Shown in pieces: positions 3,001 to 35,000 of a stretch of 64,000 bases of DNA. The number at the start of each line of letters is the position of its first letter. Positions within the stretch are counted from its first letter, which is position 1. Below the pieces are notes generated by a model. The model had not been told where the DNA came from and did no database searches. It was given only the letters and a program-made list of their open reading frames with translations. This stretch comes from Tubulanus polymorphus (lineage: Eukaryota > Animalia > Nemertea): NCBI RefSeq assembly GCF_964204645.1, contig NC_134026.1:22974150-23038149 (forward strand), in the 5' to 3' direction. The position numbers and the translations under genes are program-made.

Positions 3001-6000
3001 TAGTTGCAACTCTGGAAATTACACATTTCTCAAATAACTATGCATTCAGCAATAAGTATAGTATTTTGATAGATTGGAACAACAAAACTAATTGGCTCTA
3101 GTTCCTTGGTTTCGTGTAAACATTCATTGAGGGATAGCTTGATAAGTTACGAAGCGTTAGATATTTGACTGTGTTAGATGACAATCAAATCTTTTTGCTT
3201 TGCTATTTCAGGAATTTGTGCAGGGTCTCTCAGTATTATCGCGTGGTTCATTACAAGAAAAATTGTTGTGGGCTTTCAACTTGTACGACATAAACGGGGA
3301 TGGTATCATAACGAAAGACGAAATGTTGGACATCGTTTCAGCTATTTACGACATGATGGGCAGATTCGCTGAGCCGTGTGTAGATGAGAACACAGCTAGA
3401 GAACATGTTGAACGTGTCTTTCAGGTATTTCTAAACTCAAGGATGACCCCCCCACCTTTCACTAAAATTCACGCAGATGGGGCGAGGTTTTACAAAATAT
3501 CATGAAAAGATATATCTTGTCATCAAAGCTCTGCTCTAAAGCTGTAAAAGATTTGTGAATGAATATGTATTTGTTTAATTCTACAGAAAATGGATTTGAA
3601 TCAAGATGGAGTGATAAGTATGGATGAATTCATGGATAGCTGCCGGCGGGTATGTATTTTCTCCAATGAATGAGTTTGTGTTTTTGTATCAGTGAATAAC
3701 AAGCACACACAAACATGCATTAAACCCAATACACATGATACACACATTTACGCTTTGAAATAGTCACAAAATTTGAGCACTCATTCCACTTATAGGTCTG
3801 CACATATACTACTATAGAAGTTCGATACCTGGAGGCAACCATAGAAATAATGCATTTCCATGATGATTGATCAAGATATCAAATGGCGAAAAAGCTTAGA
3901 TTAATCTATACAAACTGCTGTTCATTGATCAATTTTTGCAGTAACAGTATAAGAATAATTGATTATTTACCTTGAGTATTCAATTCAATTCTGACTACAA
4001 GTTTTGTAAATATATGTGAAAAGGATGAAACCAATTTATAAACCAACTAAGAAACTTTTTTCGGGAGAAAATACCTAAAATGGTTCACTGTACAGAAGAA
4101 CTGCATCATTATATGCTGGTTGCCTCTGGTTACATTGAGGCAGTGCTTTTCTGGTGTCTAATAATGCATCATAATGCTTGCAAGAACTTTTATCACCATT
4201 TTGGGTGTGGTAAAAATACGTATTGTCATTCGTAATATGTTTGCAGTCTAATCTTAAAGATTTCTTTTGAAAATTCACTCATTACTGACTAGCTGCTAGT
4301 AACTTGTAGTTACTTTTTTGGGAATCATTCGGTACATACATGTGTCAGCCAGAGGTAACAAGCAAAGCAAAGATTTTGAATTAAGAATATTACTACTTAT
4401 GAATTTAAAATGAGTAGCATGTTTCTATCAGTGATCACCTAGTATGCTTTTACACTTTTGCAATCTTTCATTTTGAATATTTTGAGAAGAAATTTTACTG
4501 CTTCAAACATACCACCGACCTAAATCTTCACTCGTGTTCATTTCAACTTTTTACCTTTTTGCCTTAAAGATAATATCTTTGAATCATCATAAGTTCTTAC
4601 GGTGACAAAATACTAGACCCAAAATGTGGAACAACTTTTGATTTGGTGCAGTTTTTGAATTAATTAATCAAGCCAAAATTATATACATTCTTTTTCTAAT
4701 TTTTGGTTACTTGTTCAGAAAGCATTGTCTCATATACTTTTTCATTTCCCGCCCTCCCTTCCATTGCAGGGCGAGGTAAGTAACTATGGTCATCACAAAC
4801 TGGTTTACTGGAATCGTGGGCTACATGAAAAAGGTTTGGGCCATCCATTATTCATGTACAGCAAAAAAAGTTCAAACACAAAGAGTTGCAAATCAGCCAA
4901 CTGCTGGTCGACTTGCCACTTTGAAGTACATGGGCATTGAATGACCATTAGGTTGAATGATGTTTCTATTTGCAATTTGTTACTGACGATAAGGGTTTGC
5001 ATGATGATAGATTTTGATTTTAACAGTTTACGCAGGTAAATTGATATTTTTTCTTAATCAAAAGCATTTTTCAACTTACACTAAATTATTTGACCAGATG
5101 ATAAATGATTATTTCTAGTGAGAGTCTTTATATTCTTTTCAATTGAACTATAAAATCAAGTTTTTTGGTTGTATGTGCCGTTTTTTTAATTCGTTGTTAG
5201 ATTGATTATCATTATCAAAGAGGCAACTTAGTTTCTGCCCTCAATTTCAAATACTCATACACTAATTGCATTGAGCTTTTTCTCAGTCTACTTATTACTG
5301 ATTACTTTCCTAGGCTATGTCGTCCCTTTGATGATAGTGGCAGTACTTTTCGTGCATGAATATACTTTTAATTTCATGTTTTTGTGATTCTTTTATTATA
5401 GAATAAAGATATGATTGCATCATTTGATATGCTCGATACTGTTCTAACCGTGCCACCATCACGATCATAGCATCAATGAGTATGCGTTCGGTCATCCTAT
5501 CCGATGTTCTGTCATAATCCTGTAATTGTTGTATTACTTAATACACTATGGTCATTACTTTTACCCGGTACCATTTGTTTAGTTAAAGAAAATATTTCTG
5601 ATTACCATGCTTACCTTTAGTATTATTTATGCCACTATTTTCTATTGAATTTTGCCCCAAAATATGATAGTTATCTTCATCTATTCATTACGCCTTCTTA
5701 ACCTTAGTTGCACGATTGATGGGCTTTGTACATATTACTTTGCTACTGATATATTATTATTTCTCAAATCTGTCGATGATGTTGATATTTTTTGAGAATT
5801 TGATAAAGATGCCAGCCAATACCTACTCTTTTGTCCAAGTGTGAAAATGAAATATCTGTTTTCATTTCACTCTCCACTGTGCCCGACAATAGTTATTAAG
5901 GCAGCTCCGGATATTTCTTGAATTTCCTCATTTAATCATAATTTTCCAAAAATTACTCAGTGATGGAAATCAGGGACAGTGCTAATGCAGTAGTAGATAA

Positions 6001-9737: not shown

Positions 9738-11351
9738 TCAAGAATTCACAGCAGGCAAATGTAGATAAACCTTTGGATGAACTTTGTAAAACAGCATCAT
9801 TGGCGAAGGCTAAAAATAGAAGATAATTCTCTGATACTCACTACTTTCGTAAAGTTACTATGACATTCAAAAGCTGCAGAAATTATTCTTTATATACATT
9901 CTTATCCTATATTACTTACTCGATCAGACCAGAACATAAGCCAGATCTGTTTCACACTGTAATCACAGTCTAATACTTGTTCATCACATACTACATCAAT
10001 CTAAAACACAAGACCACGTTTTCTATCTTGGCAAAGATACAACTATCCTTGGGAAGAAATCTCTTCTATATCCAATCCTTACCTCTAGCGGCTGTGGAAT
10101 ATCGAGCATCTTTCGTAGCAGTTTTTTTAAGTGAGCTACGCATGTCCTTGTCGGGCAGCGAATAAACTTTTGATCCAAAACAGGAAGGTTGTAAGTGCTG
10201 CTCTCATATACAACCGATGTAGCGCTGCAAAATTTCAATTATCAAATTATCACAATCAAAATTGGTGCAAGCCTCTTCATATTTCAGCAGAACATGTTCA
10301 GAAACTGTTATTTCAACATTATGATTTATACCAACTACATGTACATGTTTTTTTCTTACCTAAAGCGATCTAAGCACATTGTGATGAGTTCATCATGAAT
10401 GTAGTGATGCGCATCTCGAGCATCATAAACTGTACACAGGGGTTGCACCATATTTTCTGTTTCTCCTGATATAACAATTCAAACAATTTTAAGATACCTA
10501 TTCGAGTTGAAGTTAATACACTAAACAAATCTCAGTCATTTTGAGAAAATACCTTTTGAAATCTTTGACTTGAAAAATTCTTGTTTCCTACATTGTTCGT
10601 CTTTTTTAGAAGAGAAAGAAATGACTTTTATGTAATTTTTCTCAAATAAACTTTAGGCCTATTACGAATGGAGCTGGAAACCTTAGAAACTTACTTTCAT
10701 ACAGACCAGGAACTAATTTGTATACGATATCCTGAAGATTGCGGTCACTTCTGAGGTGAAGAAATGGCTGAGTTTCGTGTATCTTCAAATTACACTGAGG
10801 ACAGTATTTACTTGTTTGCAAATATTTTACTATACAACTCTTACAAACTATAAAAGTAGGGTAATATACAAAGTGAGTTAATTTGGAGACCACACACGCA
10901 ATGAAATATTGTAAATTAATCGAATTCCTTAGAACAGATTACTAACATGTATGTAAACATTCAGCGATAGTGGTGGCATCAATAAAATACCCAGCACATA
11001 ACGAGCACACAATATGTGGGTTTATATCACGAATTCGTATTTTGAGAGTTTTACCCTGAAATGAGAATAGATAAAAAATGCACTGATATCAATGGCCAAG
11101 AAGCATGTAAGTAAAACTGTGATTGCAATGATGAATGGTCTTTTAAGTTCTCGAATGCCCCCACATCGTCCTTAAGTTGAAGTTTTGCCTTTTAAGCTTT
11201 TTTTGGATTAACCAAATAAGTTATAGTGGCACGAATTGGAATGCTCAAACTAACGGCCTCTTATTGAAAGAATGTATGAACAGCAAATTCAATTCAAATT
11301 TGACTTTAAAAAGCAATACTTTCTTCGCTTTTTTTTTACCTCATCCATCAT
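9738..11351 (-). CDS. PCGF1: Polycomb group RING finger protein, PCGF1-like (RING + RAWUL)
   Basis: Exons 11351-11340 (MMDE), 11055-10947 ([36 protein letters not shown]), 10847-10695 ([19 protein letters not shown]…[14 protein letters not shown]), 10600-10553, 10465-10360 ([17 protein letters not shown]), 10224-10083 ([18 protein letters not shown]), 10000-9920 ([13 protein letters not shown]) and 9809-9738 ([10 protein letters not shown]…*). The RING is C3HC4, and the [10 protein letters not shown] and KQIWL…PSP motifs match PCGF1 as I recall it. Confidence 0.92.
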
Positions 11352-12130: not shown

Positions 12131-12745
12131 ACAGGGGCCTGATACACAAAACGTTTTTGACCCCAGTATCCCAGTCCTAAAAGTACTATATGATTTATAT
12201 TTGGAAGTAGTTATTTTACCGGATCCGGTCACCGACTTCTGAACGATATTTTTCTGGATATCGCCTCTAATTGGCTAATTTAATCCGCGCATGCGCGAAG
12301 AGGTGACTTAGAAAATTCGAAGGAAGTGTGGAGAACAGAGTTTGAGAAAATAGAGCGGGACTCGAACCAAGTGCCAGTAAATTATAAGCGCAGCATGCCC
12401 CCAATAGACCACTGAGCTCGCTGAAAACCAACCAAATGTTTTAGCTTGATAAAGTACCTAACCTTACCCTAATCCTCTCCCTAGCTGTAAAACGGACCCT
12501 AACTCTAATCCTAACCCTCTGGACCCTCCTCTCTCTCTTGACACTAACCCTATCGAAACCCTAAACCCAATATAATGATTTTATTGTTTCTTTTATTAGT
12601 TTGTATTATAATATATGGATCGAGCTAGATATCTTTTATAAGTCGGCAACCGGATCCGGCTAAATAACTACTTCCTTTGTATTTATAAAGCTTTTTTTAG
12701 CTAGGAGGATACTAGGGTCAAAAATATTTTGTGTTAGGCCCCTGT
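12131..12745. mobile_element. Nested inverted-repeat (MITE/foldback-like) element with telomere-like internal repeats
   Basis: Outer IR ACAGGGGCCT…TTTTTGACCC-AGTATCC (from 12131) matches the reverse complement of the segment ending at 12745. Inner IR GGAAGTAGTTATTT…CCGGATCCGGT…CCGACTT (12203-12238 vs 12640-12675) is flanked by TTT on both sides. Degenerate CCCTAA repeats at about 12456-12570. Confidence 0.75.
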
Positions 12746-12779
12746 GGTTTAACTCTTATCAGGGTTTGCTTCATCAGTC

Positions 12780-12992: not shown

Positions 12993-13114
12993 GTATGTCT
13001 GGGGTTCACTGTATTTGCAAATTCAGTGAATATTTTTGATTGTATTGTATCCTTAAACCATCAATTCATTCAGATCCTTTTAATCGTGTAGTGTTTCCTT
13101 TGTAGTTCGAAACA

Positions 13115-16100
13115 ATGGAGGGTCATATAGGAAACGGAGATGCAGCATGTGGACGATGGCCGGCAGATGTCGGCATCATTGCAATGGAAGTGTATATCCC
13201 TAGTCAGTACGTAGATCAAGAAGAGCTGGAACAGTTCGACGGCGTATCAAAAGGAAAATATACAATCGGATTAGGACAGGCGCGAATGGGATTTTGTTCA
13301 GATCGCGAGGATATCAACTCATTGTGTCTAACTGTGGTTCAAAACCTTATGGAACGGCACGATATTGATTACAAAAATGTCGGACGGTTGGAAGTCGGTA
13401 CAGAGACGATCATTGATAAATCGAAAAGTACGAAGACTGTTTTGATGCAGTTATTTGAAACTTCAGGAAATACCGACATTGAAGGAGTGGATTCCAAAAA
13501 CGCCTGCTACGGTGGCACTGCTTCATTGTTCAATGCTGTTAATTGGATTGAATCTAGTTATTTCGATGGTAAGTTCTGCTCCACTAGCCATCAACAATGG
13601 GTCATCAGTCTATGAATGGCTTGATATCCAGTTTTTTTAATCTAATTTCAGGTCGCTATGCTTTAGTAGTTGCAGCAGACATAGCTGTTTATGCTACAGG
13701 AAATGCCAGATGTACTGGTGGTGCTGGTGCTATTGCTATGCTCATTGGTGCCAATGCCCCATTGATATTTGACAGAGGTGAGTCAACCAGATGATCTCGT
13801 TGATATTGATAACCTTGGTATTTTGTACTGATTTTGTGAACAATCGAAGCACTAGTAAAATATTGCATACTTTCGATATCGAGGAGGTAATTTTTAAAGA
13901 AAAAAAACTTGTCATTAATTTACTGTGTATTCAGTCACTGAACAATTTAATTTCGCTATGATTACGTAAATCATGCAACTGGATTTGCATCAATTTTGGT
14001 CAATGTCCATCTGCTAAGTGAATTTGTTGATATCACATGTGCTGTGTTTACTGCGTAATCAAGTTCTTATTTTACCGTGAAAAGTTTATAAATGAACTTC
14101 TAGTATTCCCGGATAGAACTAATTATTTAATGATCCGTGAGTCACACTAAACTATGGAATCAAACAAAAGTACTATCGGCACATGTAATAACAATAATAA
14201 TGTTTTCGGGTCATGCCTGGAAGTTGTAGCTACATACTAACACTGATATGTCATACATATAGGGGGCCTACTCGGTACTGGTGTACTCAAAAACATCAGT
14301 GCATTAAACAATTATCTGCAAAATATTATCCAAAAAGTTTATATTTTTCTTGTGTAATTAGTTGTGTCAACATGTTTTTCCGGGTTATACAGTTCTACTG
14401 ATTATTATTTCTACCCGATCAAAAATATCCTACCAAATGATATCCTGCAACTAATTTTTTATTTTCTCACATGGTATGTGATTAATAGCTTCAATGATTA
14501 TATCGTCCTTTTTTTGAACTAAGGTACGGATGTACTGAAACTGATGAACAACGACAGAAAACTGGTTGTGATGAAGTTCATTTCAAGTTGAAATATTTTC
14601 AAGATAGATACTCTAGGCTCCCCGAATAAAATCTGCATAATCTGTAGTCTATTGATTTTAAGAAAAATAATCAAATCACTTTATCGACACATTAGCAGAG
14701 TATTCCAGGGGTATTTTCTCACTCTGAGGTGATGTGACCCTAATCTTATTTTGAATAACTGAGGGAATCAAAGGGTGCCAGTTGAGTTATGGGCCTACAA
14801 AGATTCTAAAAGATATAAGCCGCGATAACACAAGCATTTTTGGCCTGGGTCAGATTATTGTGTGTGAATTGCTGCAGGTTCAGCTGACTCACTTCACTTT
14901 GCTTAAGGATGGGCCGAATTTGTGCCATCTGTGCTAATTTTGTATCTATGTGATCGCGGCTTAATTCTCCTCCCTGGATCCACATCAGTCACCTGTATGC
15001 TTAAGCAATGACACTGGTGAATTAACTGTCACACACACGCACATTTTGCAGGTTTGCGAGTTAGCCACATGCAACATGTCTATGATTTCTACAAACCCGA
15101 TTTAGTGTCAGAATTTCCTGTGGTTGCCAGGAAACTGCCCCAAAAATGTTATCTGATGGCTTTAGATAGATGCTACAAACAATACTGCCAGAAATTGGTT
15201 TCAATTACAGCAGGTAAATTCACCCTCCCCGTAGATAGTAATGTCCTTTGCCCTTAATTTCTTTCCAGGTTTACGGGCAATTCATATGCAACATGCATAT
15301 GATTTCTACAAGCCTGATATGGCATCTGAATACCCGGTAGTCGACGGAAAACTTTCTATAAAATGTTATCTTGGTGCATTAGATAAATGCTACCAACTAT
15401 ATGCCAAGAAATATTTGTCTCATGCAGGTAAATTCAACTACTACCAGAACTGGCAGACAAAGTGTCCATACCAGCATTTTGAGGGTTCAAACATTGTCAC
15501 TCAGTCAGTGAAATTGATATGTTCTAAATAACTAATGTTATGGAAATATTTGGTAGCTTTATTTTACCTTATTATTTTAGTTCCAAATGTTTAACGTATT
15601 CAAAATGATTATCTACTTGTTGATACATGTATGACTCATTCTTTTCCAATTCCCAGAAAAGTGAACCACTTCTGCAAAAAAGTGATTAAAAAGCAATTTC
15701 GATGATTTTATTTTCAGGAAAGTCTTCTTCGATATCAAACTTCAACATAGATTCAGCCGATGCATTCCTGTTCCATTCACCTTATTGCAAATTGGTTCAA
15801 AAATCTTTTGCTCGTCTCATGCTCAATGATTTCCTTCAAGATGGTGATCCAGATTTTTCTGGAAAATACGCCGGGTTAAAAGAGTATAGGTACTTCTTGT
15901 TATGTTTATTCATGCCATACATGACGCATATGCTTGAATAATTCTTAATCTTAATGAAAATTGTATATTTATCAGAAAAGTTAAGTTGGAAGACACATAC
16001 TTCAACAAAGATGTGGAGAAGGCTTTCCTAGTAGCCAGTAAGAGTGCATATATACAGAAAGTTGAACCAGGTCTTCATATGGCAAATCAATTAGGAAACA

Positions 16101-16917
16101 TGTACGCGCCTTCGTTATATGGTTGTTTAATATCATGTTTAAATAGGTGAGCATATTTGTATTTACAGTTCAAGTTCATGTCATAATAAGGGTGCTTAGG
16201 AATATCTAAAAAGTAGTATTGTTCTAAAAGATTTTAAGCCATTCTCCTTATAGATTATATTGCTTTATTATTAGAAATTGGTTTCTGGATGTATTTTTTC
16301 CAGTTGGTCGTTGTCGGAAGCAGCTGGTAAACGTCTAGTATTGTTCTCATATGGTTCGGGGCTTGCATCCTCTATGTTCTCAATGCATGTGACAAACGAC
16401 GTCGCTCCTGGTTCAAATCTGGATAAACTTAAGTCTGGTTTCAGTGATATCGACACTAGACTGAACTCACGGACGAAAGTCTCCCCTCAGGAGTTCGCTG
16501 ACACAATGAAATTAAGAGAAGATACCCATCATATAGGTACCTATGTGACAATACACTATGTACTAGTCAAGTCAAGGAATTTGTATGAGAACTTTAACCT
16601 GGGTTTTTGCTGGTACTTAAAATTAGCATTATCATCAGGTTATTGAACTGTTAGAAGTTTTCAAAATATTCTTTTTATCATGGTGCTATTAGGGCTTATC
16701 TACGCGGATCGACTTAATCAAATCATCCATTTGCTCTTTGTATTACTAAATGATGTTAGTGTAAAATGAACGGCATTTGTCTCGATATTTTTCAGCTCCA
16801 TACACCCCTGTAGGAGATATTCATAATTTATTACCCGCTACGTGGTATCTAACAAATGTAGATGACAAGCACAGGAAAACATATGACCGGAAACCAATAT
16901 TGAGTGTGTCCACTTAA
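13115..16917 (+). CDS. HMGCS1: Hydroxymethylglutaryl-CoA synthase (cytosolic type)
   Basis: Exons 13115-13568 (WPADVGI…[13 protein letters not shown]…NACYGGT, with catalytic Glu and Cys), 13652-13777, alternative 15052-15213 or 15269-15427, 15718-15889 ([11 protein letters not shown], catalytic His), 15976-16146 (GNMYAPS), 16304-16536 (FSYGSG) and 16796-16917 ([15 protein letters not shown]…*). There is an apparent 3'UTR intron at 16933-17147. Confidence 0.97.
15052..15213 (+). CDS. HMGCS1: HMGCS duplicated exon 3a (divergent copy)
   Basis: ttttgcag|…|gtaaat, 162 nt, phase 1/1, open frame: [54 protein letters not shown]. Confidence 0.8.
15269..15427 (+). CDS. HMGCS1: HMGCS duplicated exon 3b (canonical copy)
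   Basis: ctttccag|…|gtaaat, 159 nt, phase 1/1: [53 protein letters not shown]. It keeps the conserved VDGKLS motif. Confidence 0.93.
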
Positions 16918-18154
16918 CATAAGTCTTTGTAGGTGAGTAATAGAGATTGCTTTTTGGGCTGCATTTATTAAATAGTGAGCATATCAGAATTGGTGGCACT
17001 TATAGATAGAATGTAATGTAGCTTAAAACTTTAACAAAATTAAAATATCCTGGATCCAACGGACTTCCTAGTTTCTTTTTACATAACCTACAATCGATAA
17101 TGGACCTCCTTATTTTCAATCTACAATTTATTGCCTTTGTTTTTCAGGTGTTTTTTAAGCAGTGTTTAGTGCAACATGCCATACAAGCACTTCGTTTTTT
17201 TGCTATGGTCAATGATTTGTTACAAGATGGAAAAACTCTGCGTAATTCGTAATGTTCTCAGTACATTTTATTCATCATTGATGCACGCTCACACACATAT
17301 ATTTATATTTATGGTTTAGTATTTTTATATAATTGTTATTAGGCCAAAATTCTTTGTTTAGTTTTATTGGCTGTACTGGTCAGGATTATCAATAATGCAT
17401 GTATTTGATGTCAAGATGTATACGTGTATGTTTTGGAAGTGAATGAGTTTCTAAGACCATTTTAAAACCCAGTTCATTAGCTTTGGTTCTTAACATTTAA
17501 AATGGGATAAAATCCATTTGTTTAGCCTTAGAGTTAAAACTGTGAATTGTGCCACTGTCTCTTGGTTTATGCTTTAAAAGGAATAAGAATCCACAGAAAA
17601 TGAAAGATTGATGTTTTGATTTAAGTATTAGATTTTAGTTTTAATCATATTTACGATTCTGGCCTTGGGGTAAAATTCCTTTTCTGATTGCTTCTCTTTT
17701 GTATCAGAAATTTAGCTCATGCTCATAATGTTAGTAAATCAATTAGTATTACACATCTCTATGATCATTTATTGTTTGGTTGATTCAGTTAGTTAATGAA
17801 ACAAAACTGATATTAGTTGTTTGTATGTACACGGAATAGTATCTGACATATTTTCCAGTATTACGGTAACAATGTTTACACTATGTATTTAAAAAACAAT
17901 CATAGCAACAAAATATCCTGACAAATAAAATATAGAATTAATTAACACCATTGTTTGACTTTGTTAGATTATTGGTTTCATCATTTCTAATTTTGATTTT
18001 TTAAGTCAGAGCCCTGTAGATACGATTTAGGAAGAGGATGCTGAAAGCTCGCATCGTGAGTCCTAATGGTTTTGGGTCAATGGCCGACGATTCCTAGAGT
18101 GGGTGGCATTACACATTACATAACACGCGTGGTGTGGTTTCAGTGCTGGGTAAA

Positions 18155-20089: not shown

Positions 20090-23000
20090 ATGGAGTTAAA
20101 AAGGGCGCTTGTCGTCCTAGCGTTCGTCGCTACATCATATTCAAGTAAGTATTTTGTAAGATAAAAAATTATCTTTTAATTTTCAGTTCTTGTGGCGAAT
20201 GAATGATTTTATTGAAAATCTTGGTACGATCTTTTTTGCTCATGAATATAACTATCATTTATGCTCACTGAACATTATACGTATGTGAATTTATCCTTTT
20301 TGAATTGCAATTAATGTTCCGTTTTTGTAAATCTTTCACAATTCATCGTAAAGAGTTTAAAGTTGTTTACTTCATAATGATCATGCTGGTATTGACGACA
20401 GATTTGAGAAAAAGCACACCAGTTTTCCAAGTTCTTTTATAAAATTCACGGTGAAAATTAAACGGACTGATTAAAAAATAGAACGACCATGGACTAGGCT
20501 TTAATACAAACTACTTGTAATTTGTTTGAGTTTGATTAATTGGATCGGTTTCAAGCATTGAAATTCTAGCTTCCGTACTACAAGATCTCGAAGGCTACGT
20601 TATCCCTGGGAGTAAATTGTACGCCATACGAACACAAAAACAATCTAAACTTAGACCTGTTCTCTCTCGTGACTTTCTCTATTGCATCCAGGGATGAAAT
20701 TGTTTTCCATGCTAGATCCGGGTTCCCGGAAAAGTCATCATGCCTACACATTTATGTGTTTTGGAAATCTGTGTTACATAATCACAATACCACCATATGG
20801 CCGGCCTTATAAGAAAATAATTGATGATAATTTTCATATAGGATATTGCTCTGGCTCTGAACCTATTGAGACGGTTAACGTTATTGTATTTACCCTAGAC
20901 TATAACTGAAATACAAAAGTCTAGCCCAATACGATAATATAAATTTACGTACATACGAAACACCATGTTTTCAAAAAAAACATTTGAGTATGCATATGTG
21001 ATTGAATGCAAGATTGCGTCCATAATGCAGCAACAAAGGATGTCAAAGGACAAGTAATACGATGGATTTATGATAATATTTCTGTATTTAGATTTAATTT
21101 TTGCATTGTAAGATTGAAGTATCAAATTGTTCTGTTTTGCTGAATAGTGGTCTAAGATGATTCGGCCATGTTTTTGACGATTATCCTTACAAAATTTTAC
21201 AAAAGCCGTGATAAATTACTTAACGAAGTCGCTTGAAAACAAACAGACGAAACCAAGCGCACACTTAATCACCACATTGCCACTGTAAATTATTTCAGCG
21301 CCGTCAAAACAAACCTCACGCCGAATCTTTTATCTTTGCTATTCTTCACGTGTAACCTTCGTTTTTGAAAAACATTGACACGCGCACGTTTTACGATAGT
21401 TGCTTTAATGAGTTATTACCGTTGAAACCATCATATACATTGAATCTTATCGCGAAAAAGAAATACTTAATGAAAAGGGATAAGTTACTTATTACTTATT
21501 ATTCAAATATCTTACTGACATCGAGTACATGGAAAACGCTGATAACGATGTGTACTCTAAGGCTGCAGTGTTTGTAAACACAACCGACCCATTTCTTTTC
21601 TGAAACTTCTTGGAATCTTGGCTGTTGATCAAATACAGGCTTTTGCCAACAATATACGTCGACCAAACACGAGGTTACCCCCTGGGTCCGTAAAAAGGGG
21701 TGTAGCTGTAAAAATCCCCTAGGTAGCAATCTATGATTCTTTAAAATAGGTAGAAATCTCTACCTTCTTGAACGGAAAACAAATAGATATAATCTGAAAG
21801 TTTATTCATTGATAAATTCAATTTATTCATATCTTACTGTGCCTATATCATACCATGAATACAACGATTGTACAATTTGATTTATAAGATCCTACTAATT
21901 TAAAAGTCCATTAATACTAAAATTTTTCACACAGCTCAAATGTAGCACAAATTAAAAAGAAGTCATTGCACAGTTAGAAATACAACTTGAGTATTAAAAA
22001 ATATTACAAATTTAAAGTTCTTAATGCGTCAGTTTTCGAAAGATTTCGCATTGCACAGTTTGAATCTTACAAACATGAAAAATTCTTAATTTCATTTATT
22101 CTTTTGTTCTGATAGTAAAGAGGCCGAAACACAAATGGAGATTTTCGTTTTCGTATTTATAAACTGCTCATAATTCTTTCAGGTCCCATCAACTTAGGGG
22201 ACTACCGTCATAGTATTTGTACGCAAACATGCACAGGTAATTTCATTGATATATTGATAAGCATTCAAATTCGTGAATACTTGAATTATTTTACAATTTA
22301 GAAACTTTATTCATCATAAACTCATACTTTATAAAACTCCGTCGTTATTTCAGAATCAAACACATTCAACTACAATCCGGGAACCACGTACTCGTTCAAA
22401 TATGAGAGTGGCGTTTTAACGGAAGTCAGTGGTTCAAACACAGAGAACTCAGGACTTCATATGACTGCCAACGTGGACATCGAGGTCTTAGACAAATGTA
22501 ATATGGCACTAACGGTATGAACTAAACTGATTTGACGCTAACGTGCGAAATATAACCTTTCCCTTGAAAAAATGCCGCTACTTTCATTTTATTTGGGGAT
22601 GAAAATTAAGAAATACACTTCTAAACTTCTAAATGTGCTAAAATATTTTGGAAATTTCAGATGAAAAATGTTGCCTTGTACATTACTGATCCGACTAACC
22701 GCAATAGAAAAACGATATCTGACGGTAGCTCTGATTTCGGTCGAGCTTTAGAAGCGCGTCCTCTGAGATTTTCCTTCCAAGACGGTAGCATCGACGGTGT
22801 ATGCACCGATAGACCGGAGGATGAGAAAAAATGGGTGGTCAATATCAAAAGAGGTGTGCTGTCCTCATTCCAAAACACCATGGGTGATCTGATGGTGGAT
22901 ACAAAACTGAAAGAGGTATATGAATATATTTTTGTTGTGTTGTCGAAACGACTATCAGACTTAGGACGTATCTATGAACATTCATTCATTTTGGTTGGTT

Positions 23001-26000
23001 TACAGAATGACGTCAGCGGCAATTGTCACTCCGAGTACAAAGTAGCTGAAAGAGGATGGAACAGTTTTACAGTTAAAAAGACGAAAGATCTTTTAAGTTG
23101 TACTGATAGACACGGGTTCAGAACTTCTCTACAAACCACTCCATACCGAGTCAATTCGGTAAGAAGCGAAAAATGATGTTCTCTAAAAAGATTAATTAAT
23201 GATTTATTTTCTCCACAAAATTATATTATAATTAACAAAATATGTAAGAGGGTTGATTGACAATATGGAGAGGGACAACAAGCAAGCTTTAAAAGCTTTA
23301 CACAGCTACAAGTGCTGAGGCGAGGTGCCCCTGAAGACGATTTCAAAGTTGAATAGGCAATGTACTACTTCTGTAATTGAATTGCAGGATATCCAGTCCC
23401 TGCCCCTGTTGAAAGGTACCCATGAATGCATTCAGAAAATCCATAAGAGCGGCCGGTTACTGAAAAGTGAATGTACTGAGGTCCACATGTTCCGACCATT
23501 CTCGAAAGAAAACAGTGGTGCAATGACGAAAGCAACTCATGTGCTTGAGTTCCTCCGCGAATCCGCTGGAGTACGAACTTCACCAAGTAAGTAAAACTGA
23601 TGAGAAAATAATTGAAAAAAAAACGGTTACTATACGCGCGTAAATAGTGAGAGACCTAGTACCAGGGTACTGTCGTAAAAAGTCGTGAAACATGTCTTCC
23701 GAACGTGCGTAACGTTTCAAAGTCCTGAGTTCAAGTGTTGTTAATCGATAGTTCTAATTGTTTTCTATGATTACTGGTTAATGTACAACTACTCGGGTTA
23801 TAAAGCTATCGCTGATAAAACAATGATTCAAATAGGTTTAAAGATCGAAAAATATGAATCCAAATCATAAAAATCTGGACAAAGAGCTTATCATGTTTCG
23901 AAGTTCAAGTTCGAGTGGATTTTCGCACCTTGATTGTTATCAGTGGCGTAATTGTTTTTTCCCGAAAATAATGGTTTGGGGTATAGAATTGTGCCCATCC
24001 TTTTTGTAGGAGGCAACTTGCGTCGGGGAAATTTGTTTTTCGAACACGAACATGACGCAGAGCAACAACGAACCAACATTCTCCAGGCAACCAATCTGAT
24101 AAGGCAAATTTGCGAAATGACTCAAACTGACATCAGGCCAGAAACTCCCCATCTGTTCTCGAGTCTTGTCTACAGTTTGAGACAACTCGACAGCGCCTCG
24201 CTCAGAGATATGCACAGAAGAATCACATCAAATGCTGTCTGCACAAATAATCATAAAATTGCCAAGTGAGTGTTCCTTTGTGCGTGACTGATAATCCAAT
24301 TCCATAAAAAAGAAATAGATCTCCTTTTCCGCAATTTGACGATGATGATATTTGTCACCATATTCGATATAGCCTGAAAATGACGGTTTGAGCTTGATTG
24401 AGCTTGGAAAAGAATTCATTTCCTGATTTATCTTTTCTCAGGAAGTATTTCCACGATGCCATCCCTATGGTGAATTCCGAGGCTTCAGTTGCACTAATCA
24501 GCGCTCTGGTCACTAATCAACATATGCGAGGTTTGGAAGCGGACATGTGGGTCACGTCTCTCGCGTTCATCCAATCACCTACCACGCAAATGCTCAAATC
24601 TGTTCAGGTAATCACAATCGTAGCTCCAAGCAATTGAAAAAAGAACATTTTTTTCGGTTTGATCAAAAGCAATTAACACCGTGCTATTTGATTTTTGCAG
24701 AGATTATTAGAAGGCCAACCACGTAAGAGCGCTTTCCTGTCCGTATCGGCAATGGTCAACACGTTCTGTAAACATAATTCAGAATGCCATCGTCTCACCG
24801 AATTCGACGGGATTGCAAACATTCTCGGACAACGGCTCGGGACTAGTTGCAAATTCTCCAGCGAAAGTGATAGGCAGTATTTATTCATGGCACTGCGAGC
24901 GGTTGGTAATATGGGGCATTCGACAAATTTGGCCCGTCGTCTGCAAGGTTGCATGCGCGACACGACAAACCCGATTGAAATACGATTAGCCGCCATCGAC
25001 GCCTACCGCAGAATGCCTTGTTCCGTCGATGTAAGTTCAGCGTACGAAAATAGAAAAAAAAGAATGATTATATACTTGAGACCCATTTAGTTATTTTGAA
25101 TGAACAGAAGGCCGCATTACATACGACTTTTCGAACATTATTTGCCGCTTTCTGATATATCCATAGATCGGGCAATAATTGTTGAGTATATTATGTAGAA
25201 AGGTCTGCTGGAGTCATGTACTGTGATGATTCTGATTAGAATAGAAATATCGTATATTTCAGAACACGCATTTGATAGATTTGTTCACGAACAAAAAAGA
25301 AGACCCAGAGGTACGCATCGCAGCCTACAAGGTACTGATGCAGTGCGCCTCACCCGAGCTGCTCGACACAATCAAAGCCACGATGTCTCGTGAAGATGTC
25401 AACCAAGTAGCTTCGTTCGTCTGGTCGCATTTGAACAACCTGCTGAAGACGAACGATATTCACAAGCAAAACATTCGTAAAATTCTCGACGAGACTGACC
25501 TCAACAATGCGTTCGATATGGATAAAAGGAAGTTCTCGAGAAACTACGAAGCTTCGTACTTCTCAGACATGGCCAACGCCGGAATCAAAGCCGAAAGCAA
25601 CGTGGTGTTTTCACCGAAGTCGTTCGCACCACGATCGGTCAACCTGAATTTAACGATGGATCTATTTGGCGAAACGTTCAACCTTCTGGAAGTCGGAGGA
25701 CGCGTCGAAGGCTTGGAGGAAATGGCCGAAAAACTGTTTGGCCCGAAAGGTTATTTCTCCGACAATTCGATCAAAGATACGATCAAGAGAACTCGCCGTA
25801 GCATCAATGACATTAACCGTATTCACGAACAGGTAGAAAACTGTGAATAAAGGATTTGAAATATAAGTTCATGAAATCAAATTATTCAATCTATCACTCG
25901 TTCATTTTCAGTACAAAGGTGGAGCGAACAGAGACTTAAAGGGAAATATGTATTTACGTATTTTCGGCCACGAACTGAGCTACTTAGAACTGACGAACAT

Positions 26001-29000
26001 GGGTGGAAGTGGCATGAACATTCTCGATATTCTTATTGCGTTGGCCAGAGATCACCACATCGACGTGTCGAAAAGTTTCATGTTCTTGGATACAACGATG
26101 ACCATCCCCTTGATGACTGGTATGCCGCTGAAACTGTCCGTCAACGGAACTTCAACTATCAACCTTAAAATCAAAGGAAAAATGGACATGAGAAAATTAG
26201 GCAGTAGTCCACGGAGTCTCGACATTACAGGATATGTAAAACCAAGGTAAAGAAGCTAATCCGATATTGATATACTGGCATTTTAATACCATTCCCAATA
26301 ACTTATCTTATAGCTTCACAATTCTTTTACAGTGGTGCTGTAGAAATATCTTCGCTGATGGGTGTCGATGCTGCAGTTGCGCGAACTGGCCTGAAAATGG
26401 TCACCACCCTGCATTCCAGCACTGAAGTCGACGGCTCCATCGTCATCAAGGATAGCCAGATCGTCAACGTAAAATTCAACATGCCGAGAGATAAGATTGA
26501 AATCCTCAATGTTGAGTGAGTTCCACATGATAATACCTTATTTATCACTAACAATTATACGATTCTTACATCGGTACGTGTATTCTATTGACAGGAATAA
26601 ATTCTTCATCGTTCACCGCGAGACCGAGCGAGAACAAAAGATGCTCGCCACCGAACCAATAAAAAAACGCACATGTACGCCTGCGTACATGACGAAATTG
26701 GCGGGAGTTGAGGTCTGCAGTCAGATGACTTACCCTAATTACGAAAGCGGTAGCTTGGAACCTATTCAGTATCCATTAGCTGGACCTTTTAAATTGGGTG
26801 TAGTTCTTAACAAACGTGATACGCATAGTTCGTACGAGTTTGAAGCCAAACTGTTGACTCGAAAGGTTAGACAAAGATTTCCTCACGTATAAGTTTGCTA
26901 TCATTATATTACTACGTCACAGCCAGTTACAAATGAATTTGATTATATAAACATCAATCATATCTAATCGTATTTTTTCAGCACCGTAAGAACGGCGTTA
27001 CCCACTACGCTCACGAAGCAAAATTGGCGTTTAACACTCCGAATTCACAGGTGAACAGGGAATTGCTTCTGGATTTCAAGTTAAACAGGGCCGATAAGGC
27101 TTTGAGCTTTAACCTCATTTCACCATGGAAGAAAGTCAATATGAACGGTAAAGATTTATTCCAAAATCCCTTTTTTTTTGATTTTCTGAGCTTAAGAATG
27201 TGTTTTTGCAAAATAAGCTTAAGAGAATTGGTTCAAAATGCATTAATTTTATCATCAAAAAAATTTATCTTATTATCATCCAGGTGCCATTTTGAATAAT
27301 GCCGGTCACAAGCGTTTGACCGGACGTCTTATGATGGATCAACTTCGAGAATACTCGCTACTTGCCGAGGTTGAGATTGACACCAAAGAAGGCCGACGAA
27401 CCATTACCCCTAACGTCGAAATCCGCATGCACAACCGCAATACTGTATCCCTGCGAGGCCAGATAGATCACAGCATCGGACAAAGTTTAAGCGCTCATTT
27501 ATCAGTGGAGAATCTTTTCCGTCGACCTTTGACAATGAAGGCTGACTTGAAAAAACAGAAACAAGGCAGTAGTGGCACAAGGTTAGTTAAATCTGCCTTC
27601 ACAACGTTTATTTACAAATGAATCCTTATCGTAAACTTGCAAAATGCCCGTGAAAACTGTTCAAGGCACTTTTTTAGCAAAATAGTGAACATGAAATTAG
27701 AAAATTATTCATCTATTGTCATATCGAATCATTCGATGTAATCATTTCTTGTTAGTTGACAGTTTTGATGAATCTAATTTACATGTATTTGTTAAATCTT
27801 GTCACCAACAGATACGACATATCAAGCGAGTTCCATTCGCAGATCTTTCACTCGAAGGTGAAAGGATTCCTGGACGCAAGACGCGGGAGCCGTTACACGA
27901 GTCGAGTCGAGATCGAATACGGGAAACAGCGTAAACCCGAACATCGCATGGTTGTTAACTACAAGATGAGGGACAGAACATCTGCAACATTCCGACGAGT
28001 GATGGTCGACACGTAAGTCGTGTGACATTAAGTTCATTTCTTCAATCTCTAACACATTCGAACCGAATGCAAAAGTTTGGTTATTTTCAACTTTTTTGAT
28101 AGAACAATGACGTTTACTTTATCTATTACGTTTTATTTTGTCACTTTCTTTTCATTTGTTCAAAAATTTGATTGAAAAATATTTTCCTTCAGCGCAATTG
28201 AGAGCAGCCAATACCCGGATTACGACTTCCATACACGGTTTGATCTTCAGAAAACTACCACTGGTCATTACGAAGGAACTGCATCGTTGCAGTACGGTCG
28301 TAACCCTAATGATATTAACAAAAAAATCGACACACATGTATTACTCAAGTACAACAGAGCTGGCAAAATTGTAAACGTCGAATCTTCGGCTAGTTTCAAG
28401 TATCCAGTCATTGTAAGTGGATTTGTTAGAGTTTAATATAGTCGGACACTACAGTCCAGACCCATCATGAATTATTGAATATTTCTTTTTCAGGAAGCTG
28501 ATTTAGCCACGAAACTGACGGCTAACCACCGACCGTCGCAAACAAAGGTTAATACTGTCTTACAGTGGGCAACTGGTAAGCAGATGACTACCGACGTTAC
28601 CTATCGAAAAACTGGTGAAACGCACTATATCAACGGTGCAATGACCTTACCAGCCAAAGCGCCAATTTCATTCAGCGGAAATGCGAAGCTAGACCCCAGA
28701 GATTTGGCCATATCGGGACAGGTAAATTATGAAGGCCGTATCTATGTTGGTGATGTTGCTTATGTTGGCGACGCTTCTATCAATCACGATCTTACTGCGA
28801 ATCTCCAACTGCCAGACAAACCCCCGGCCAATCTGAAGGTTATTGGCAAGTTGGATCCACGTGATTTCATTGCCAAACTTAATCTGAAACACAATTACAA
28901 AGAGTATAACAGTGAATTGGTGTATAGTCTCAAAACCACTGGAGAATACCCGTCTGTTACTGGCAACCTTGACCTTAAGCACCCCACACGAAGAATTACA

Positions 29001-32000
29001 TCAGTTCTCGAGTTCGGATTTCACCCAAGGAGAGTTGACGGAAAATTGGACTTCAAATGGGACGCTGATAGGGATAGCAGCAAAGTTTTCGCAACGAATG
29101 TGAATTACAGATATGAAAATGAAGGCATTACGGTAACTACTCAAACAACTTACCCAGGACGCACGATGAAAGCAAAATTAGATGCGAATCGAGTAGGAAA
29201 CGCATATAGCTGTCGTACCGAAGCAGAATGGAGTCCAACCGATAAGATTGTACTTGATATATCATTCAACAAAGCCACCAAAACCGACGGACACGATATC
29301 AACGGAAGAATTTCTCTTACATCACCGTTTAAGAATGTGAAGAAAGTTGGATCACAATTTACGTTGACATCCGGCAGTACTCCGACAAGGAAATACCAAG
29401 GAAATGCCGAGGTGTGGTGGGGAGACCAGAAAAAGATCATATTGGATGGAATTCTATCCACCCACTCCATTAAAAACTTCGAAATAAAACTGACAGCTAC
29501 TACACCATTCGACGGTTATCGTAATCTTGGCGGTCATTTGAAAAACGTTATGGACACTTCATTGTCGACAAAGGCATCTATCAAATACGGCAACAAGGGC
29601 ATTGACTTCGATCTTCGACTTGACCGACGAGAACTTACGTTAAAGATGATGTCTCCGTTTGAATACATGGAAAATGCAATGCTCAACTTACGCGTATCGA
29701 CTGCAGATGATGGCATGCGTATGGTCGAACTTCTTTTCCGTTCCAAGCCACTCATTGATGATGTTACTGTGACGGTTGGTGTAAATCCCACGGGTTGGAA
29801 GAACTTTGGTGGAAAACTAGCGATTAGAACGCCATTCGAGTTGGTGAAAACTGCTGACGTAGAATTGGTTAGTTTGCTGACTGACAGGGAATTTAAAATG
29901 ACGTTTGGTGGCAATTATAACGGAGTGCAAGGAAAATACAGCTTGAATTTGAAAAATAATGGCAATCTTGGTAGAAACAACGTCGAATTCATGATGAGCG
30001 GCAGATGGAAGCAACGTATGGTTGAACTGATTATGAAACACAACGACAACGGAAGACAATTTAACTCGAATTTCGATCTAACGTACAACACCATGAAACT
30101 GCTTTCGGCTGCACTTGACGTGTTCCATGATGCGAACGATGTTCACGTTGAAAATAACGGAAACTACGTATGGGAGCTTAATCTATATCAGAAGAAGTAC
30201 ACATACAATCACTCCTGGAGACAGAAATTTACGAAAAGTGATGGACAAGTTTCGGCCCAGCACGCCATTACTGTTAACGGTCGTAATTACGTGTTCGATT
30301 TAAGTGGTTCGCATAGGTTCTCATTGGGAACTAGACGCATGATTGGTACTCTCGAAATGACTATTCCCGGACTTTCTGAAAAGGTCATCACTAAATTGCA
30401 CTACGTCAGAAACGGAAAGGAGAACCTCGAAGCTAAATTGAATGTATTCAGCGGTGTCCGTATATTTAACGTTGAGTTCGATTACAAGTTTGATGGCAGT
30501 TATGCTAACGTAGATGCAAATTTGAACCTGGACGTCAGTGGAGTCGTTGCTACAGCAGTAAATCCGATCGATATGAACATCAAGACGCATTATTCGGGAT
30601 TCCCGTACACAACGCATTTTGAAATAACAGGCCTGAAAGACCGCTTCGTCGTCGATCTGCGACACGAGAGACGGTCTTATTCAACCTACTTTACCAGGCT
30701 AGATGCAGACATTTACGGGAAACAGGCCAGTCTTCAGTCAACCTACGAAAAAACTTTTGATTCGATGAGCAGCGACATAAAGATCAAAACTCCGTATAAA
30801 CATCTTCAAACTCTAGATACGCTAATCAAGTGGAATGGTTACATTGGTGGGCAATTCATGCACTCTTACAAAGTTGTCTATTCTGGGGAGAAATACCAGT
30901 TCACTTATGCAGCTGACCAACAGATGACTACATTGACAAATCACGTGACGACTATCAGTTTAACCAGTAATATTCCATCTTACGAAAACGTTCAGATTAA
31001 GTTTGACCAATCACTGACTCATAATAAGTACCAACTTATCAAAGACATGACCATCGGACAGAAGTTGCAATGGCAGTCAACCTTCACCATCGAGTACGAG
31101 AACAACCGTCCGTCATCAACATGGGTCGCAACGATCAACGGAAACAAAATCAATATACACGGTGAAGCTCTTTATCAAAAACCATCATTTAATGGAGAAC
31201 TCAAGTTTGAATTTACTCCATTAAACGGAGAACTAAGCTCTATTGTTACTAACGTTAGGCTGAATCATGGAGAAGAACTCGAATTGCATGGAGATTTCAA
31301 GTTGACATGTCATCATATGAAAAACATCGATATGAAATATGACCTGAACAAAATAGCCAACAAATGGCACTCTGCATTTGAGGCTAATGTAGAAAATATG
31401 GGCAAATACGAGATGAACGCTGAATTCAAAAAATCATTGGAAAATGCTAGATTTACGATGAAAACTCCACATGAAAAGCTGAAGTCGCTTGAATCTACGT
31501 TTGAGTATAATCCAGAAAATCCATTCCGAAATGTAAAATTAACCGGGGAACTTATCTATTCCGGATACAAGAAAGCGTCACTGTCGGGTAAATTGAAAAT
31601 CAAGTCGTTGAAAGACATCGAGGTTGAATTCACAGCAAACGCTCCATCACGAAACTACGAGCTCAAGCTGATGCGCAGGAAAGATATTGGAATGTCCAGT
31701 ACGAAATTCTTAGTCGACAATGCTGGATCGAAATTTGAATTTTCCTCACTGTATCATCCAAAGAATCCTTTCAATTTAAAAGTTGAACTGAAAACACCGA
31801 TACAGTTCATCTCATCGATGTTGCTTGAAATAAACAACGATGTGAAAAGTTACAATGAATTTAAGCATAAGTTCGTGTTCGAATACAACATTTACGTCGC
31901 CCGTGTCAGACTGGAAAATGAATGGGAAGTCAACGGACCAGAATTAGTCAAAGGAGCCATGAGAATGACGAGTCCAATAAATTCGTACGAGTTCTTGCTA

Positions 32001-35000
32001 TTTACCGTCGATCACAGGCGGCAAGGTGACGATTTACTGACTGATGTAGAATTCAACCGAGTGTCAAGACAGAGGTTCCAGTTAAGACAGAGATTGAACC
32101 AGATAGACCGACGATATGAGCTTGATCTCGAAACACCTTGGGAAGAAATGAGAACGATGAAAGTTGTGGCTGTACAAGAGGGAGAGGGTTCCAGCTACAA
32201 CTTCAAATTGGATATGGAGATTCCACGATACAAGTTAGACTATTCGTCAATTCGACGACCAAGTTCAATAAAGACCATTTTGAAATTGGATACACCCCAT
32301 GATGGTTTCAGAAAAATCTCCCAAACCATGGAATTACAATTAGACGATGACACTACCGATTTCGGTTACAATGTCGACATTTCTAAACGCTATAACTTCG
32401 AAGCGAAATACAACCAACGAAACCAAATTGGAAACGGTATTGAAAGGAAGATATCAATTACTGGAAGTACCCCACACGATGTAATGAGGTCAATATCCAT
32501 CGATCTAACCTATGGTGGTGTGTGGAATAATTTCAAGAGTAATTTGATTATCAACCACAATAAACTACAAGTTCCGGTCTATGTTGTTTTGAATTATAAA
32601 GCAAAAGCTAATGCTGAGTTTTCACTGAAAGGCCCGGTTATGGAACTGGTGTTAAAATACGACAAGTCAAATGATTACACGTATGTTACTGAAACAAACT
32701 TACGTTACGGCAGCGATATGTATATCCGGCTGAACAACGAATTAAGACCGCATAGTTGGACAAGTTGGGGAGGCTCATTAAAATTGGAAACGTCGTTTGA
32801 AAGATTGGAGATGACGAAGATAGACTTTTCTCACACTGGATCAAGACTTTCATTCACCAACAACATCAAACTGGATTCCCAACGTTATGGGGAGATAAAC
32901 TGCAAAACTGAATGGACGACCCGGCCACAGTACAACGCGAAGGTAGCCATTCTCACGCCTTTTGATTCGTGGGAGAAAATTGAACTGTCACTGAATCACA
33001 TGGGCAGCAAAAAGGAATTCACCACAACTATCTCAGCAGTTACAAATACAAAGAGGCTCAGCGGTACATTTAACTTTAAGAACATCAACGGTCTCGAGGC
33101 TCACTTAATGTTATTGACACCATTCAAAGGGTATAACCGAGTCTCAGCAGCATTCAGTCACACTGGAGTGCTCCGAAACTTCCGTACCGGTTTAACGATT
33201 TCACGACCTGGCCGGGAATATAAAGTGAACGTCGAATTCAAGAAGCGACCAGAAATTGAAGTTCGACTAGTTGTCAAGACGCCCTACAAACATTACAAGC
33301 ATCTAGAGTTTTACATGAAGCATTCTGGCAATTTCCGACAATTCACCAACACCGGTTTGCTACAGCTGAGACGAGGAAAGCGCATTGATACCAAAGTTAT
33401 CATCGATACAAATGATTTGAGTGCGCTGTATGTTCGAGGAGAAGTAAAAACTCCATATGAGAAGATGAAACAGTTGGTTGCCTCATATCGACACAGCAGC
33501 AATTCTGCAGATTTAACTGGCAACTTAGATATCACTTTTAACGGCCGTGCTATAAACACGATTCTAGCGTTCAAAATGCCAACGCTGAATGACATCACTG
33601 GATCCATAACGATGAAAACACCGTACACAAATTATCAAGAACTTGTTGCTTCATTCGAACATAAAGGTCATTCGAAGGCATTCCATACCAACGGTAAAAT
33701 CCAATACATGACTGGAAAAACTATTTCTGGTGAATTGACGTTTGGAAGGGAGATTAGAAAGATTGATGTTGAACTGAAAATAAGATCCCCGTGTCCACGC
33801 ATTCCAAATGCTGCTGTCATACTGAAGTTTGATGCAAACGACAAACTGGACTCCAAATTACAAATCCTCAGTGGTTTAAATGAAGCTATGTTTGATTCTG
33901 GTCTATTGGTAGCTGCCAATGCAATTGATGGGCATTTACTTATTAAGACTCCTTTCAAGCCGATGCGCAAAGCTGAATTTAAGTTGGCAGTCACTGACCA
34001 AATCGTAGCGTCGTTTGAAGTTGATCATAATGCTGGAAAAAGCGAAGGATCAACAACATTCAAATACAACAAACAAAATGGCATGGAGTTAACTGCGAAA
34101 GTAAATACACCACACGACATATCAGGGTTAATTTCTGCTACTATAGCAAACCGTTGGACGACATACTCTGGTACTACAAACTTCCAGTGGGCTGCAGACA
34201 AGAAAATAACGTTTAGTGAAGACACTAAATTTACAAAAACACATGGTTTAGTGAGCAAGTCGTATATTTATACTCCGTTCGAAAGACTTGAGATCATATC
34301 TCTTGAACTGCACCACAATGGCAATATGGATGATTTCACGACCAATGCTGTTGCTGAATTTGGCATGGGTAACAAGGCATATGCGGCTGTGCAATTCACA
34401 AAAGGTGTCAGTGGCATTTTATCATTCCGAAGCCCATTCAATTATGCAGAGAACTTGAGTTTGAAGTATAGCAAGAGAGTAGTCGATGGAAAAGACGGTG
34501 TCCATTTGGAGACATCGTGGGCCGAGGGTAAAAAAGTAACGTTTGATTTTGGACACAAATTCTCTGGTATCCCATCCGCCTTAACGCTCGATGTTTACGC
34601 AAAGATAACCACCCCAACGAGTTGTTTGCCACGACTGACAATTGATATGGAACACAAACACGGCGACGGATTCATTAGTAATAAGTTGGCTGTTACTACT
34701 CGCAGACGATATGACACAGAACTTGATCTTGAATGGAGTGGCACAGGAGTAAAAGCAGAGCTAAATACCAGATCACCGGTACCAATGCAAATAACTATGA
34801 ATTTGCTGAAAACTGGTAACGACGTGACAGGAAACATGATGGCTAACTGGGACACGCGGGTATTGGACAAAAACGTTCAGGTTAACCTCATGCACACCGA
34901 CAGTTCCAATTACTTTATGCAAAAATACACGACATCAGTCAAAGTGACTTTACCATGGAGAACTATGGGCGCCGAGAACTATTTCGAAAAGACGACATAC

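Follow-up and report, generated by a model that had tools for sequence, protein, structure and literature searches.

An unannotated duplicate exon, probably mutually exclusive with its neighbour, in the HMG-CoA synthase gene of Tubulanus polymorphus and its predicted impaired product

The HMG-CoA synthase gene and its surroundings

The window, a stretch of 64,000 nucleotides from the palaeonemertean Tubulanus polymorphus, contains the gene for HMG-CoA synthase (HMGCS), an enzyme that acts early in the synthesis of sterols and isoprenoids. A protein search matched coding exon 1 at 100% to XP_074640695.1 ('HMG-CoA synthase 1-like'), the only HMGCS protein on record for this gene. PF01154 and PF08540 are both found in the protein, which identifies it as a eukaryotic HMG-CoA synthase, and the catalytic Glu, Cys, His and Asn (E97, C131, H266 and N345) are present. 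Exon 3 exists in two copies, here called 3a and 3b, and all four catalytic residues are encoded by exons common to both forms. The coding part of the gene comprises the following elements (X2 is one of three runs described below):

13115..13568, forward strand: coding exon 1, with the ATG at 13115 and catalytic Glu97 and Cys131
13652..13777, forward strand: coding exon 2, whose donor is seen joined to 3b by a GT..AG joint that skips 1491 nt
15052..15213, forward strand: exon 3a, an open duplicate in phase 1/1 that is absent from the annotation and present in the spliced run X2
15214..15268, forward strand: the 55-nt intron between 3a and 3b, with candidate branch adenines at intron nucleotides 28 and 44
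15269..15427, forward strand: exon 3b, the canonical copy in the annotated protein, with all conserved columns retained
15718..15889, forward strand: exon 4, with catalytic His266 (3b form)
15976..16146, forward strand: exon 5, from the gene model and X2 contigs
16304..16536, forward strand: exon 6, from the gene model and X2 contigs
16796..16932, forward strand: exon 7, with the stop codon at 16915-16917, retaining the equivalent of Arg500, the partner of Asp254

XP_074640695.1 corresponds exactly to the 3b form. Its 90% cluster has this one member, so that no 3a protein (the 3a form is about 96% identical) is found in the cluster of the record. An intron of 215 nt in the 3′-UTR (16933-17147) starts 15 nt past the stop codon and was seen in its spliced form; at the other end of the gene, the exon 1 contig (13106) carries 10 unplaced letters before the AG at 13104-13105, which suggests an untranslated exon upstream.

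A high-copy repeat region (12190-12750, summed X1 depth about 3000) lies 5′ of HMGCS, and the upstream genes are represented by an EF-hand-coding frame (3182-3505, forward strand) and a weak RING-finger-coding frame (10642-10938, reverse strand). Directly downstream, at 22400-40300 on the forward strand, is a large lipid transfer protein gene of the apolipophorin/apoB-like type with Vitellogenin_N, open beta-sheet, DUF1081 and VWD domains, including an open frame of 2299 codons at 28479-35378.

A likely old tandem duplication of exon 3

Exons 3a and 3b are a tandem-duplicated pair: they are adjacent, homologous, equal in phase (1/1) and similar in length (162 and 159 nt). The encoded residue is the same at 33 of the 53 full codons, or at 34 of 54 if the split Gly is counted, and 14 of the 33 identical residues use different, synonymous codons. 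DNA identity amounts to 72% over 151 nt, and a tblastn comparison between the copies gives an E value of about 5e-19; no third copy of exon 3 was detected within the window by tblastn. Both exons match Pfam PF08540 and, in structure 2P8U, human HMGCS1 residues 201-248.

Judged by sequence, the splice signals are whole on both exons, with AG and GT flanks and candidate branch points, and the two copies have the donor context GCAG/GTAAATTCA (exon/intron) in common. Two features precede 3a:

14805..14991, no strand assigned: dispersed repeat in intron 2, about 60-250 nt 5′ of the 3a acceptor; the limits given are depth-bin limits
15022..15051, forward strand: 3a acceptor region, with the candidate branch point TTAAC (A at 15025, 26 nt 5′ of the exon, assigned by consensus only), a CA-rich stretch and TTTTGCAG

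The dispersed repeat has a summed X1 depth of 604 versus 34 and imperfect inverted arms (14811-14830 and 14949-14968); it could be a small transposon relic that affects the use of 3a. The original prediction for this locus had described a pair of open, homologous phase-1/1 exons of 162 and 159 nt, with 34 of 54 residues identical and synonymous differences, intact splice sites and a common donor, set unusually close together. Recomputed coordinates and counts agree with this description, and the AG/GT ends and the donor context are confirmed.

An X1 contig spans 12559-17600 with 0 differences. X1 may itself be the source of the window; even so, this contig together with saturated four-fold sites rules out an assembly error as the origin of the pair. 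All 10 four-fold sites differ between the copies (15054-15203 versus 15271-15420), which also rules out recent gene conversion, whereas only 4 of 21 two-fold sites do; this contrast makes dS uncertain. Maximum likelihood gives a dN of 0.22 and a dS of 1.9, and NG86 leaves dS undefined. The duplication is thus likely old, with an age that is large but imprecise.

Exon 3a keeps 24 of the 29 columns that are conserved at 90% among 104 distinct peptides. In a drift simulation with 3b as the stand-in ancestor and indels ignored, an open exon with at most three unseen residues arose in 1 of 20000 runs at 0.3 substitutions per site and in 0 of 20000 at 0.5. The kept columns and the simulation rule out neutrality of 3a since the duplication; since simulated drift of at least 0.3 almost never reproduces 3a, the exon appears to have been under purifying selection for most of its life.

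Protein and metagenome searches found no 3a-like relative. An adjacent exon-3 duplicate was present at none of 80 metagenome loci and in none of 280 proteins, none of which is known to come from a close relative. Two exon-3 matches do occur in 7 of the 280 proteins; these are double-length whole-gene models and not neighbouring exon copies. Four mosquito records (941-946 aa) each contain two complete HMGCS units in one protein model, from either a true fusion or merged tandem genes.

Use of the two exons in spliced contigs

Three runs were examined (X1, X2 and X3); none is recorded as RNA, and X1 and X2 come from one study. From a sample of 34 words drawn from 15052-15427, the share found was 1.00 in X1, 0.71 in X2 and 0.00 in X3, which has only one aligned piece (44 nt at 86%). 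X2 behaves as RNA because it shows six GT..AG joints that X1 is without. Its word share of 0.71 fits the presence of both exons with the 55-nt intron removed, for which 0.76 is expected, and does not fit 3b alone (0.38 expected, P about 1e-4). Exon 3a is thus present in this spliced run and, from the contigs described next, likely used.

In X2, a contig of 767 nt (depth 46.7) consists of exon 1, exon 2 and 3b, skipping 3a through a joint that does not occur in X1. Another, of 426 nt (depth 21.3, 0 differences), spans 14795-15214 and so takes in the whole of 3a together with the 257 nt of intron 2 before it, unspliced. The match of the 3a and 3b contigs ends one base past the donor in each case, followed by exactly six unplaced letters. 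Were the donor joined to exon 4, the match should extend one base beyond it, and were it joined to 3b, two bases; by this one-base match and the six leftover letters, whose identity is not displayed, the 3a donor appears to be spliced to exon 4, skipping 3b. The contig end points to the same partner for the 3b donor. If both contigs run into exon 4, both end at 15724, and the exon 4-8 contig starts at 15726, a gap for which a variant at 15725, the third position of a codon, would account.

Several junctions had been named as a check on exclusive use. That from 13777 to 15269 was seen in the X2 contigs, while those from 13777 to 15052 (exon 2 to 3a) and from 15213 to 15269 (3a to 3b) are not among the 15 joints listed of 24. 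The exon 2 contig runs unbroken into 3b, and the contig ends also argue against co-inclusion in this one sample. The predicted mutually exclusive use is supported by the skipping from exon 2 to 3b, which is seen, by the apparent skipping from 3a to exon 4, by the lack of a co-inclusion joint among those listed and by the unusually short intron. We conclude that 3a and 3b are probably mutually exclusive. It is important to point out that all RNA evidence consists of contigs from one sample not recorded as RNA, in which contig depth cannot rank isoforms; depth arithmetic in X2, where bins 15179-15926 keep unexplained depth, cannot rank them either. Since the assembler simplifies its graph and filters short contigs, according to the Logan preprint (10.1101/2024.07.30.605881), a minor joint could have been lost.

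The unspliced 3a contig raises the prospect of an RNA-level shunt, with 3a carried mainly by transcripts from which intron 2 is not removed or which begin within that intron, perhaps at the repeat. The contig is unspliced from 14795 and has a depth of 21.3, compared with 8.12 and 7.48 in the other two intron-2 contigs, and an in-frame ATG lies at 15069. Yet contigs cannot show transcript starts or levels, a partly spliced precursor accounts for the same contig, four upstream ATGs precede 15069, and a shunt does not account for how long the 3a coding sequence has been conserved. We consider such a shunt very unlikely, and the same holds for the fates it implies, namely degradation of the transcripts or translation into a 280-aa C-terminal piece without Glu97 and Cys131.

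The 55-nt intron and the possible enforcement of exclusion

A steric limit of about 50 nt between donor and branch point has been derived from vertebrates (PMC7969005 and PMC5740500), while C. elegans splices introns as short as about 40 nt (PMC4165533). Because the vertebrate limit need not hold in a worm when C. elegans goes to about 40 nt, local intron sizes were compared. Five HMGCS introns are seen spliced (83, 86, 157, 215 and 259 nt) and one is modelled (290 nt); the neighbouring lipoprotein gene has 14 predicted introns of 79-426 nt. At 55 nt, the intron between 3a and 3b is 24 nt under the shortest (79 nt) of these 20 other local introns, 15 of which are predicted, and its spacing is as unusual as the original prediction held. 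Both candidate branch adenines, at nucleotides 28 and 44, fall under the 50-nt limit. Given 55 nt against a minimum of 79 nt nearby, steric interference, with branch points assigned as candidates, is a plausible enforcer of 3a/3b exclusion.

Other enforcers fare less well. The predicted products have 479 aa with 3a, 478 aa with 3b, 532 aa with both and 425 aa with neither, and since all four splice forms are open and in frame, the reading frame is unable to enforce exclusion and frameshift surveillance is ruled out. Competing RNA structures of the docking site/selector type were rejected too: four duplex tests were matched by 26, 7, 5 and 18 of 30 shuffles. Folding of the sequence upstream of 3a has a z of only 0.06, and a comparison with Rfam had no matches.

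Residues changed in exon 3a

The notable residues of 3a, given in human HMGCS2 numbering anchored in part on a table of human variants, are found at two places:

15060..15062, forward strand: Val at position 232 of 3a, where 174 of 179 homologues have Gly, Ala or Ser
15114..15143, forward strand: altered stretch of 3a, positions 250-259, with Y250F, D254A, G255R, S258P and I259Q

Over positions 254-258, 3a reads A-R-K-L-P and 3b reads D-G-K-L-S. As reference, 280 of 283 retrieved proteins yielded 236 distinct peptides. D254 is present in 230 of these peptides, G255 in 235 and S258 in 234; none is without two of the three, and the 3a states A254, R255 and P258 occur in none. The S. aureus enzyme retains VDG and the Ser. 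The three losses were found here and had no place in the original prediction. Val232 is shared by 2 of 179 homologues, and 3b has Ala at this position.

The model of the 3b protein has a mean pLDDT of 87.9, with only 65-67 over residues 201-220, and a long helix begins at Gly220. Helix termini follow capping rules, and on these 3a would lose the cap residue of the long helix and place a Pro at its fourth position; only the 3b protein was modelled, so that such effects on 3a are read off the 3b model. When the human enzyme was simulated, Asp254 formed a bridge to Arg500 in the partner subunit (PMC12428298), and Ser258 is among the residues that maintain active-site structure (PMC5979369). The three positions thus contribute a salt bridge between subunits (D254), the start of a helix (G255) and a part of the frame of the active site (S258). 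Variants of human HMGCS2 deficiency fall in the same segment as the 3a changes or at its partners: G232V has no detectable activity (PMC5979369), R500H is inactive, R500C keeps 3.7%, and V253A, beside Asp254, keeps 24% (PMC12428298 and PMC7480138). These human data cover neighbours and partners of D254A, G255R and S258P, in another enzyme background than that of the worm.

With the Asp254-Arg500 bridge lost, the helix cap lost and Pro in place of the active-site-shaping Ser258, the 3a enzyme is predicted to be impaired and perhaps to dimerise poorly. Classical pseudoenzymes have lost catalytic residues, whereas 3a loses supporting residues only, and because the catalytic triad is intact in shared exons, the 3a form may keep some activity.

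These changes bear on the proposal of two competent isoenzymes with different kinetics or regulation, after the fashion of PKM1/2 or KHK-A/C, which the original prediction had favoured. In its favour, 3a is open and has intact splice sites, it was long kept by purifying selection, the triad is whole in shared exons, and the changes adjoin the substrate tunnel, as does the KHK exon (PMC9741552). Against this, 3a replaces D254, G255 and S258, near-invariant down to the S. aureus enzyme, with residues absent from all 236 peptides, and it carries V232 besides; disruption of the bridge at Arg500 lowers activity to 0-3.7%, and V253A lowers it to 24%; human duplicated-exon pairs retain 80.6% of ligand-binding residues (PMC9741552); and the joint from exon 2 to 3a was not seen among those listed. 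Two working isoenzymes are accordingly improbable.

A proposed on/off exon pair, or an exon in decay

The reading we prefer, with a probability of roughly 0.4, is that 3a and 3b form an on/off exon pair in which 3a is a maintained off exon. The 3b copy would give normal HMG-CoA synthase; the 55-nt intron is likely too short to be removed, so that the two exons would be spliced mutually exclusively; the 3a copy would give a folded, catalytically impaired subunit that acts as a splice-controlled off or damping switch, putatively damping 3b subunits through mixed dimers.

Nearly as likely is a decaying relic: 3a would long have been a working alternative exon, lately fallen out of use and gathering damage while its splice sites are still leaky. 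Recent release from selection is a strong rival because drift of 0.04-0.08 per site accounts well for how many changes there are, giving an open exon with three unseen residues in 11-15% of runs and leaving the frame open in 58-75%. The missing exon 2-3a joint among the 15 of 24 listed and the lack of an annotated 3a protein agree with it, as does V232, which equals a human null variant, and the repeat 60-250 nt 5′ of the 3a acceptor could have weakened that acceptor. On the other side, the donor, acceptor and candidate branch point of 3a are intact, 3a is present in a spliced run with its donor likely used, and the unseen changes are clustered. All three fall within five residues, which at the best-fitting drift of 0.06 per site happened in 49 of 3054 qualifying runs (about 1.6%; about 1.4-1.9% under drift overall, P 0.01-0.03 by counting), in a test that was post hoc, chosen after seeing the data, and with V232 outside the cluster. 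This confinement suggests that the changes were targeted rather than random. The dead duplicate that the original prediction had allowed for is borne out by half at most: 3a is open and was under purifying selection for the greater part of its history, but it may have begun to decay recently.

A more specific version of the on/off pair is somewhat less likely, namely that a 3a kept by selection rebuilds a tunnel-lining loop and a dimer contact, so that the HMGCS gene makes its own inhibitor through regulated splicing. A dead or monomeric subunit would then throttle mevalonate flux via mixed dimers or have a non-catalytic job.

Relation to known exon pairs and significance

A literature search, with subscription journals mostly outside its scope, found no description of HMGCS with mutually exclusive or duplicated exons, in keeping with the original remark that none was known for the animal enzyme; the main texts of PMC9741552 and PMC5740500 do not mention HMGCS, and neither does one supplement of PMC8373072. 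With an identity of about 63%, the 3a/3b pair is in the company of the PKM, KHK, PFKP and ACOX1 pairs (PMC9741552), in which, as here, adjacent homologous in-phase exons swap a segment beside a ligand site. Pairs of the PKM type mostly keep their ligand-binding residues (80.6%), whereas 3a is without three near-invariant residues of the active site and the dimer contact. Among human duplicated-exon pairs, PMC9741552 names only ACTN1, ACTN4 and ACAN as losing most of a site. In these calcium-site pairs and in OGDH exons 4a/4b (PMC7969005), one copy loses a functional site, as 3a does, but the loss concerns a regulatory calcium site, and in 3a it concerns parts of the catalytic frame.

As regards exclusion, OGDH 4a/4b relies on branch points 25-41 nt from the donor (PMC7969005); these are distant branch points in a longer intron, whereas here the entire intron measures 55 nt. 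Alpha-tropomyosin and C. elegans egl-15 and let-2, as cited in PMC7969005 and PMC4165533, have a donor too near the branch point, as proposed here, and like 3a and 3b their exons have lengths of 3n and thus no frameshift safety net. The C. elegans cases measure 14-30 nt, where the minimum is about 40 nt; for T. polymorphus the minimum is estimated from 20 introns and the branch points are candidates.

Overall, the analysis uncovers a real, unannotated duplicated exon that is probably used in a mutually exclusive fashion. The enzyme it gives is predicted to be impaired, and not to serve as a further functional isoenzyme. If 3a is decaying, the locus offers a clean snapshot, of modest interest, of a long-functional alternative exon being lost. 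Duplicated-exon switches known from enzymes mostly modulate a functional enzyme. Should selection maintain 3a, two proteins that differ in one 54-residue segment only would let splicing choose between an active subunit and a disabled one early in the mevalonate pathway.
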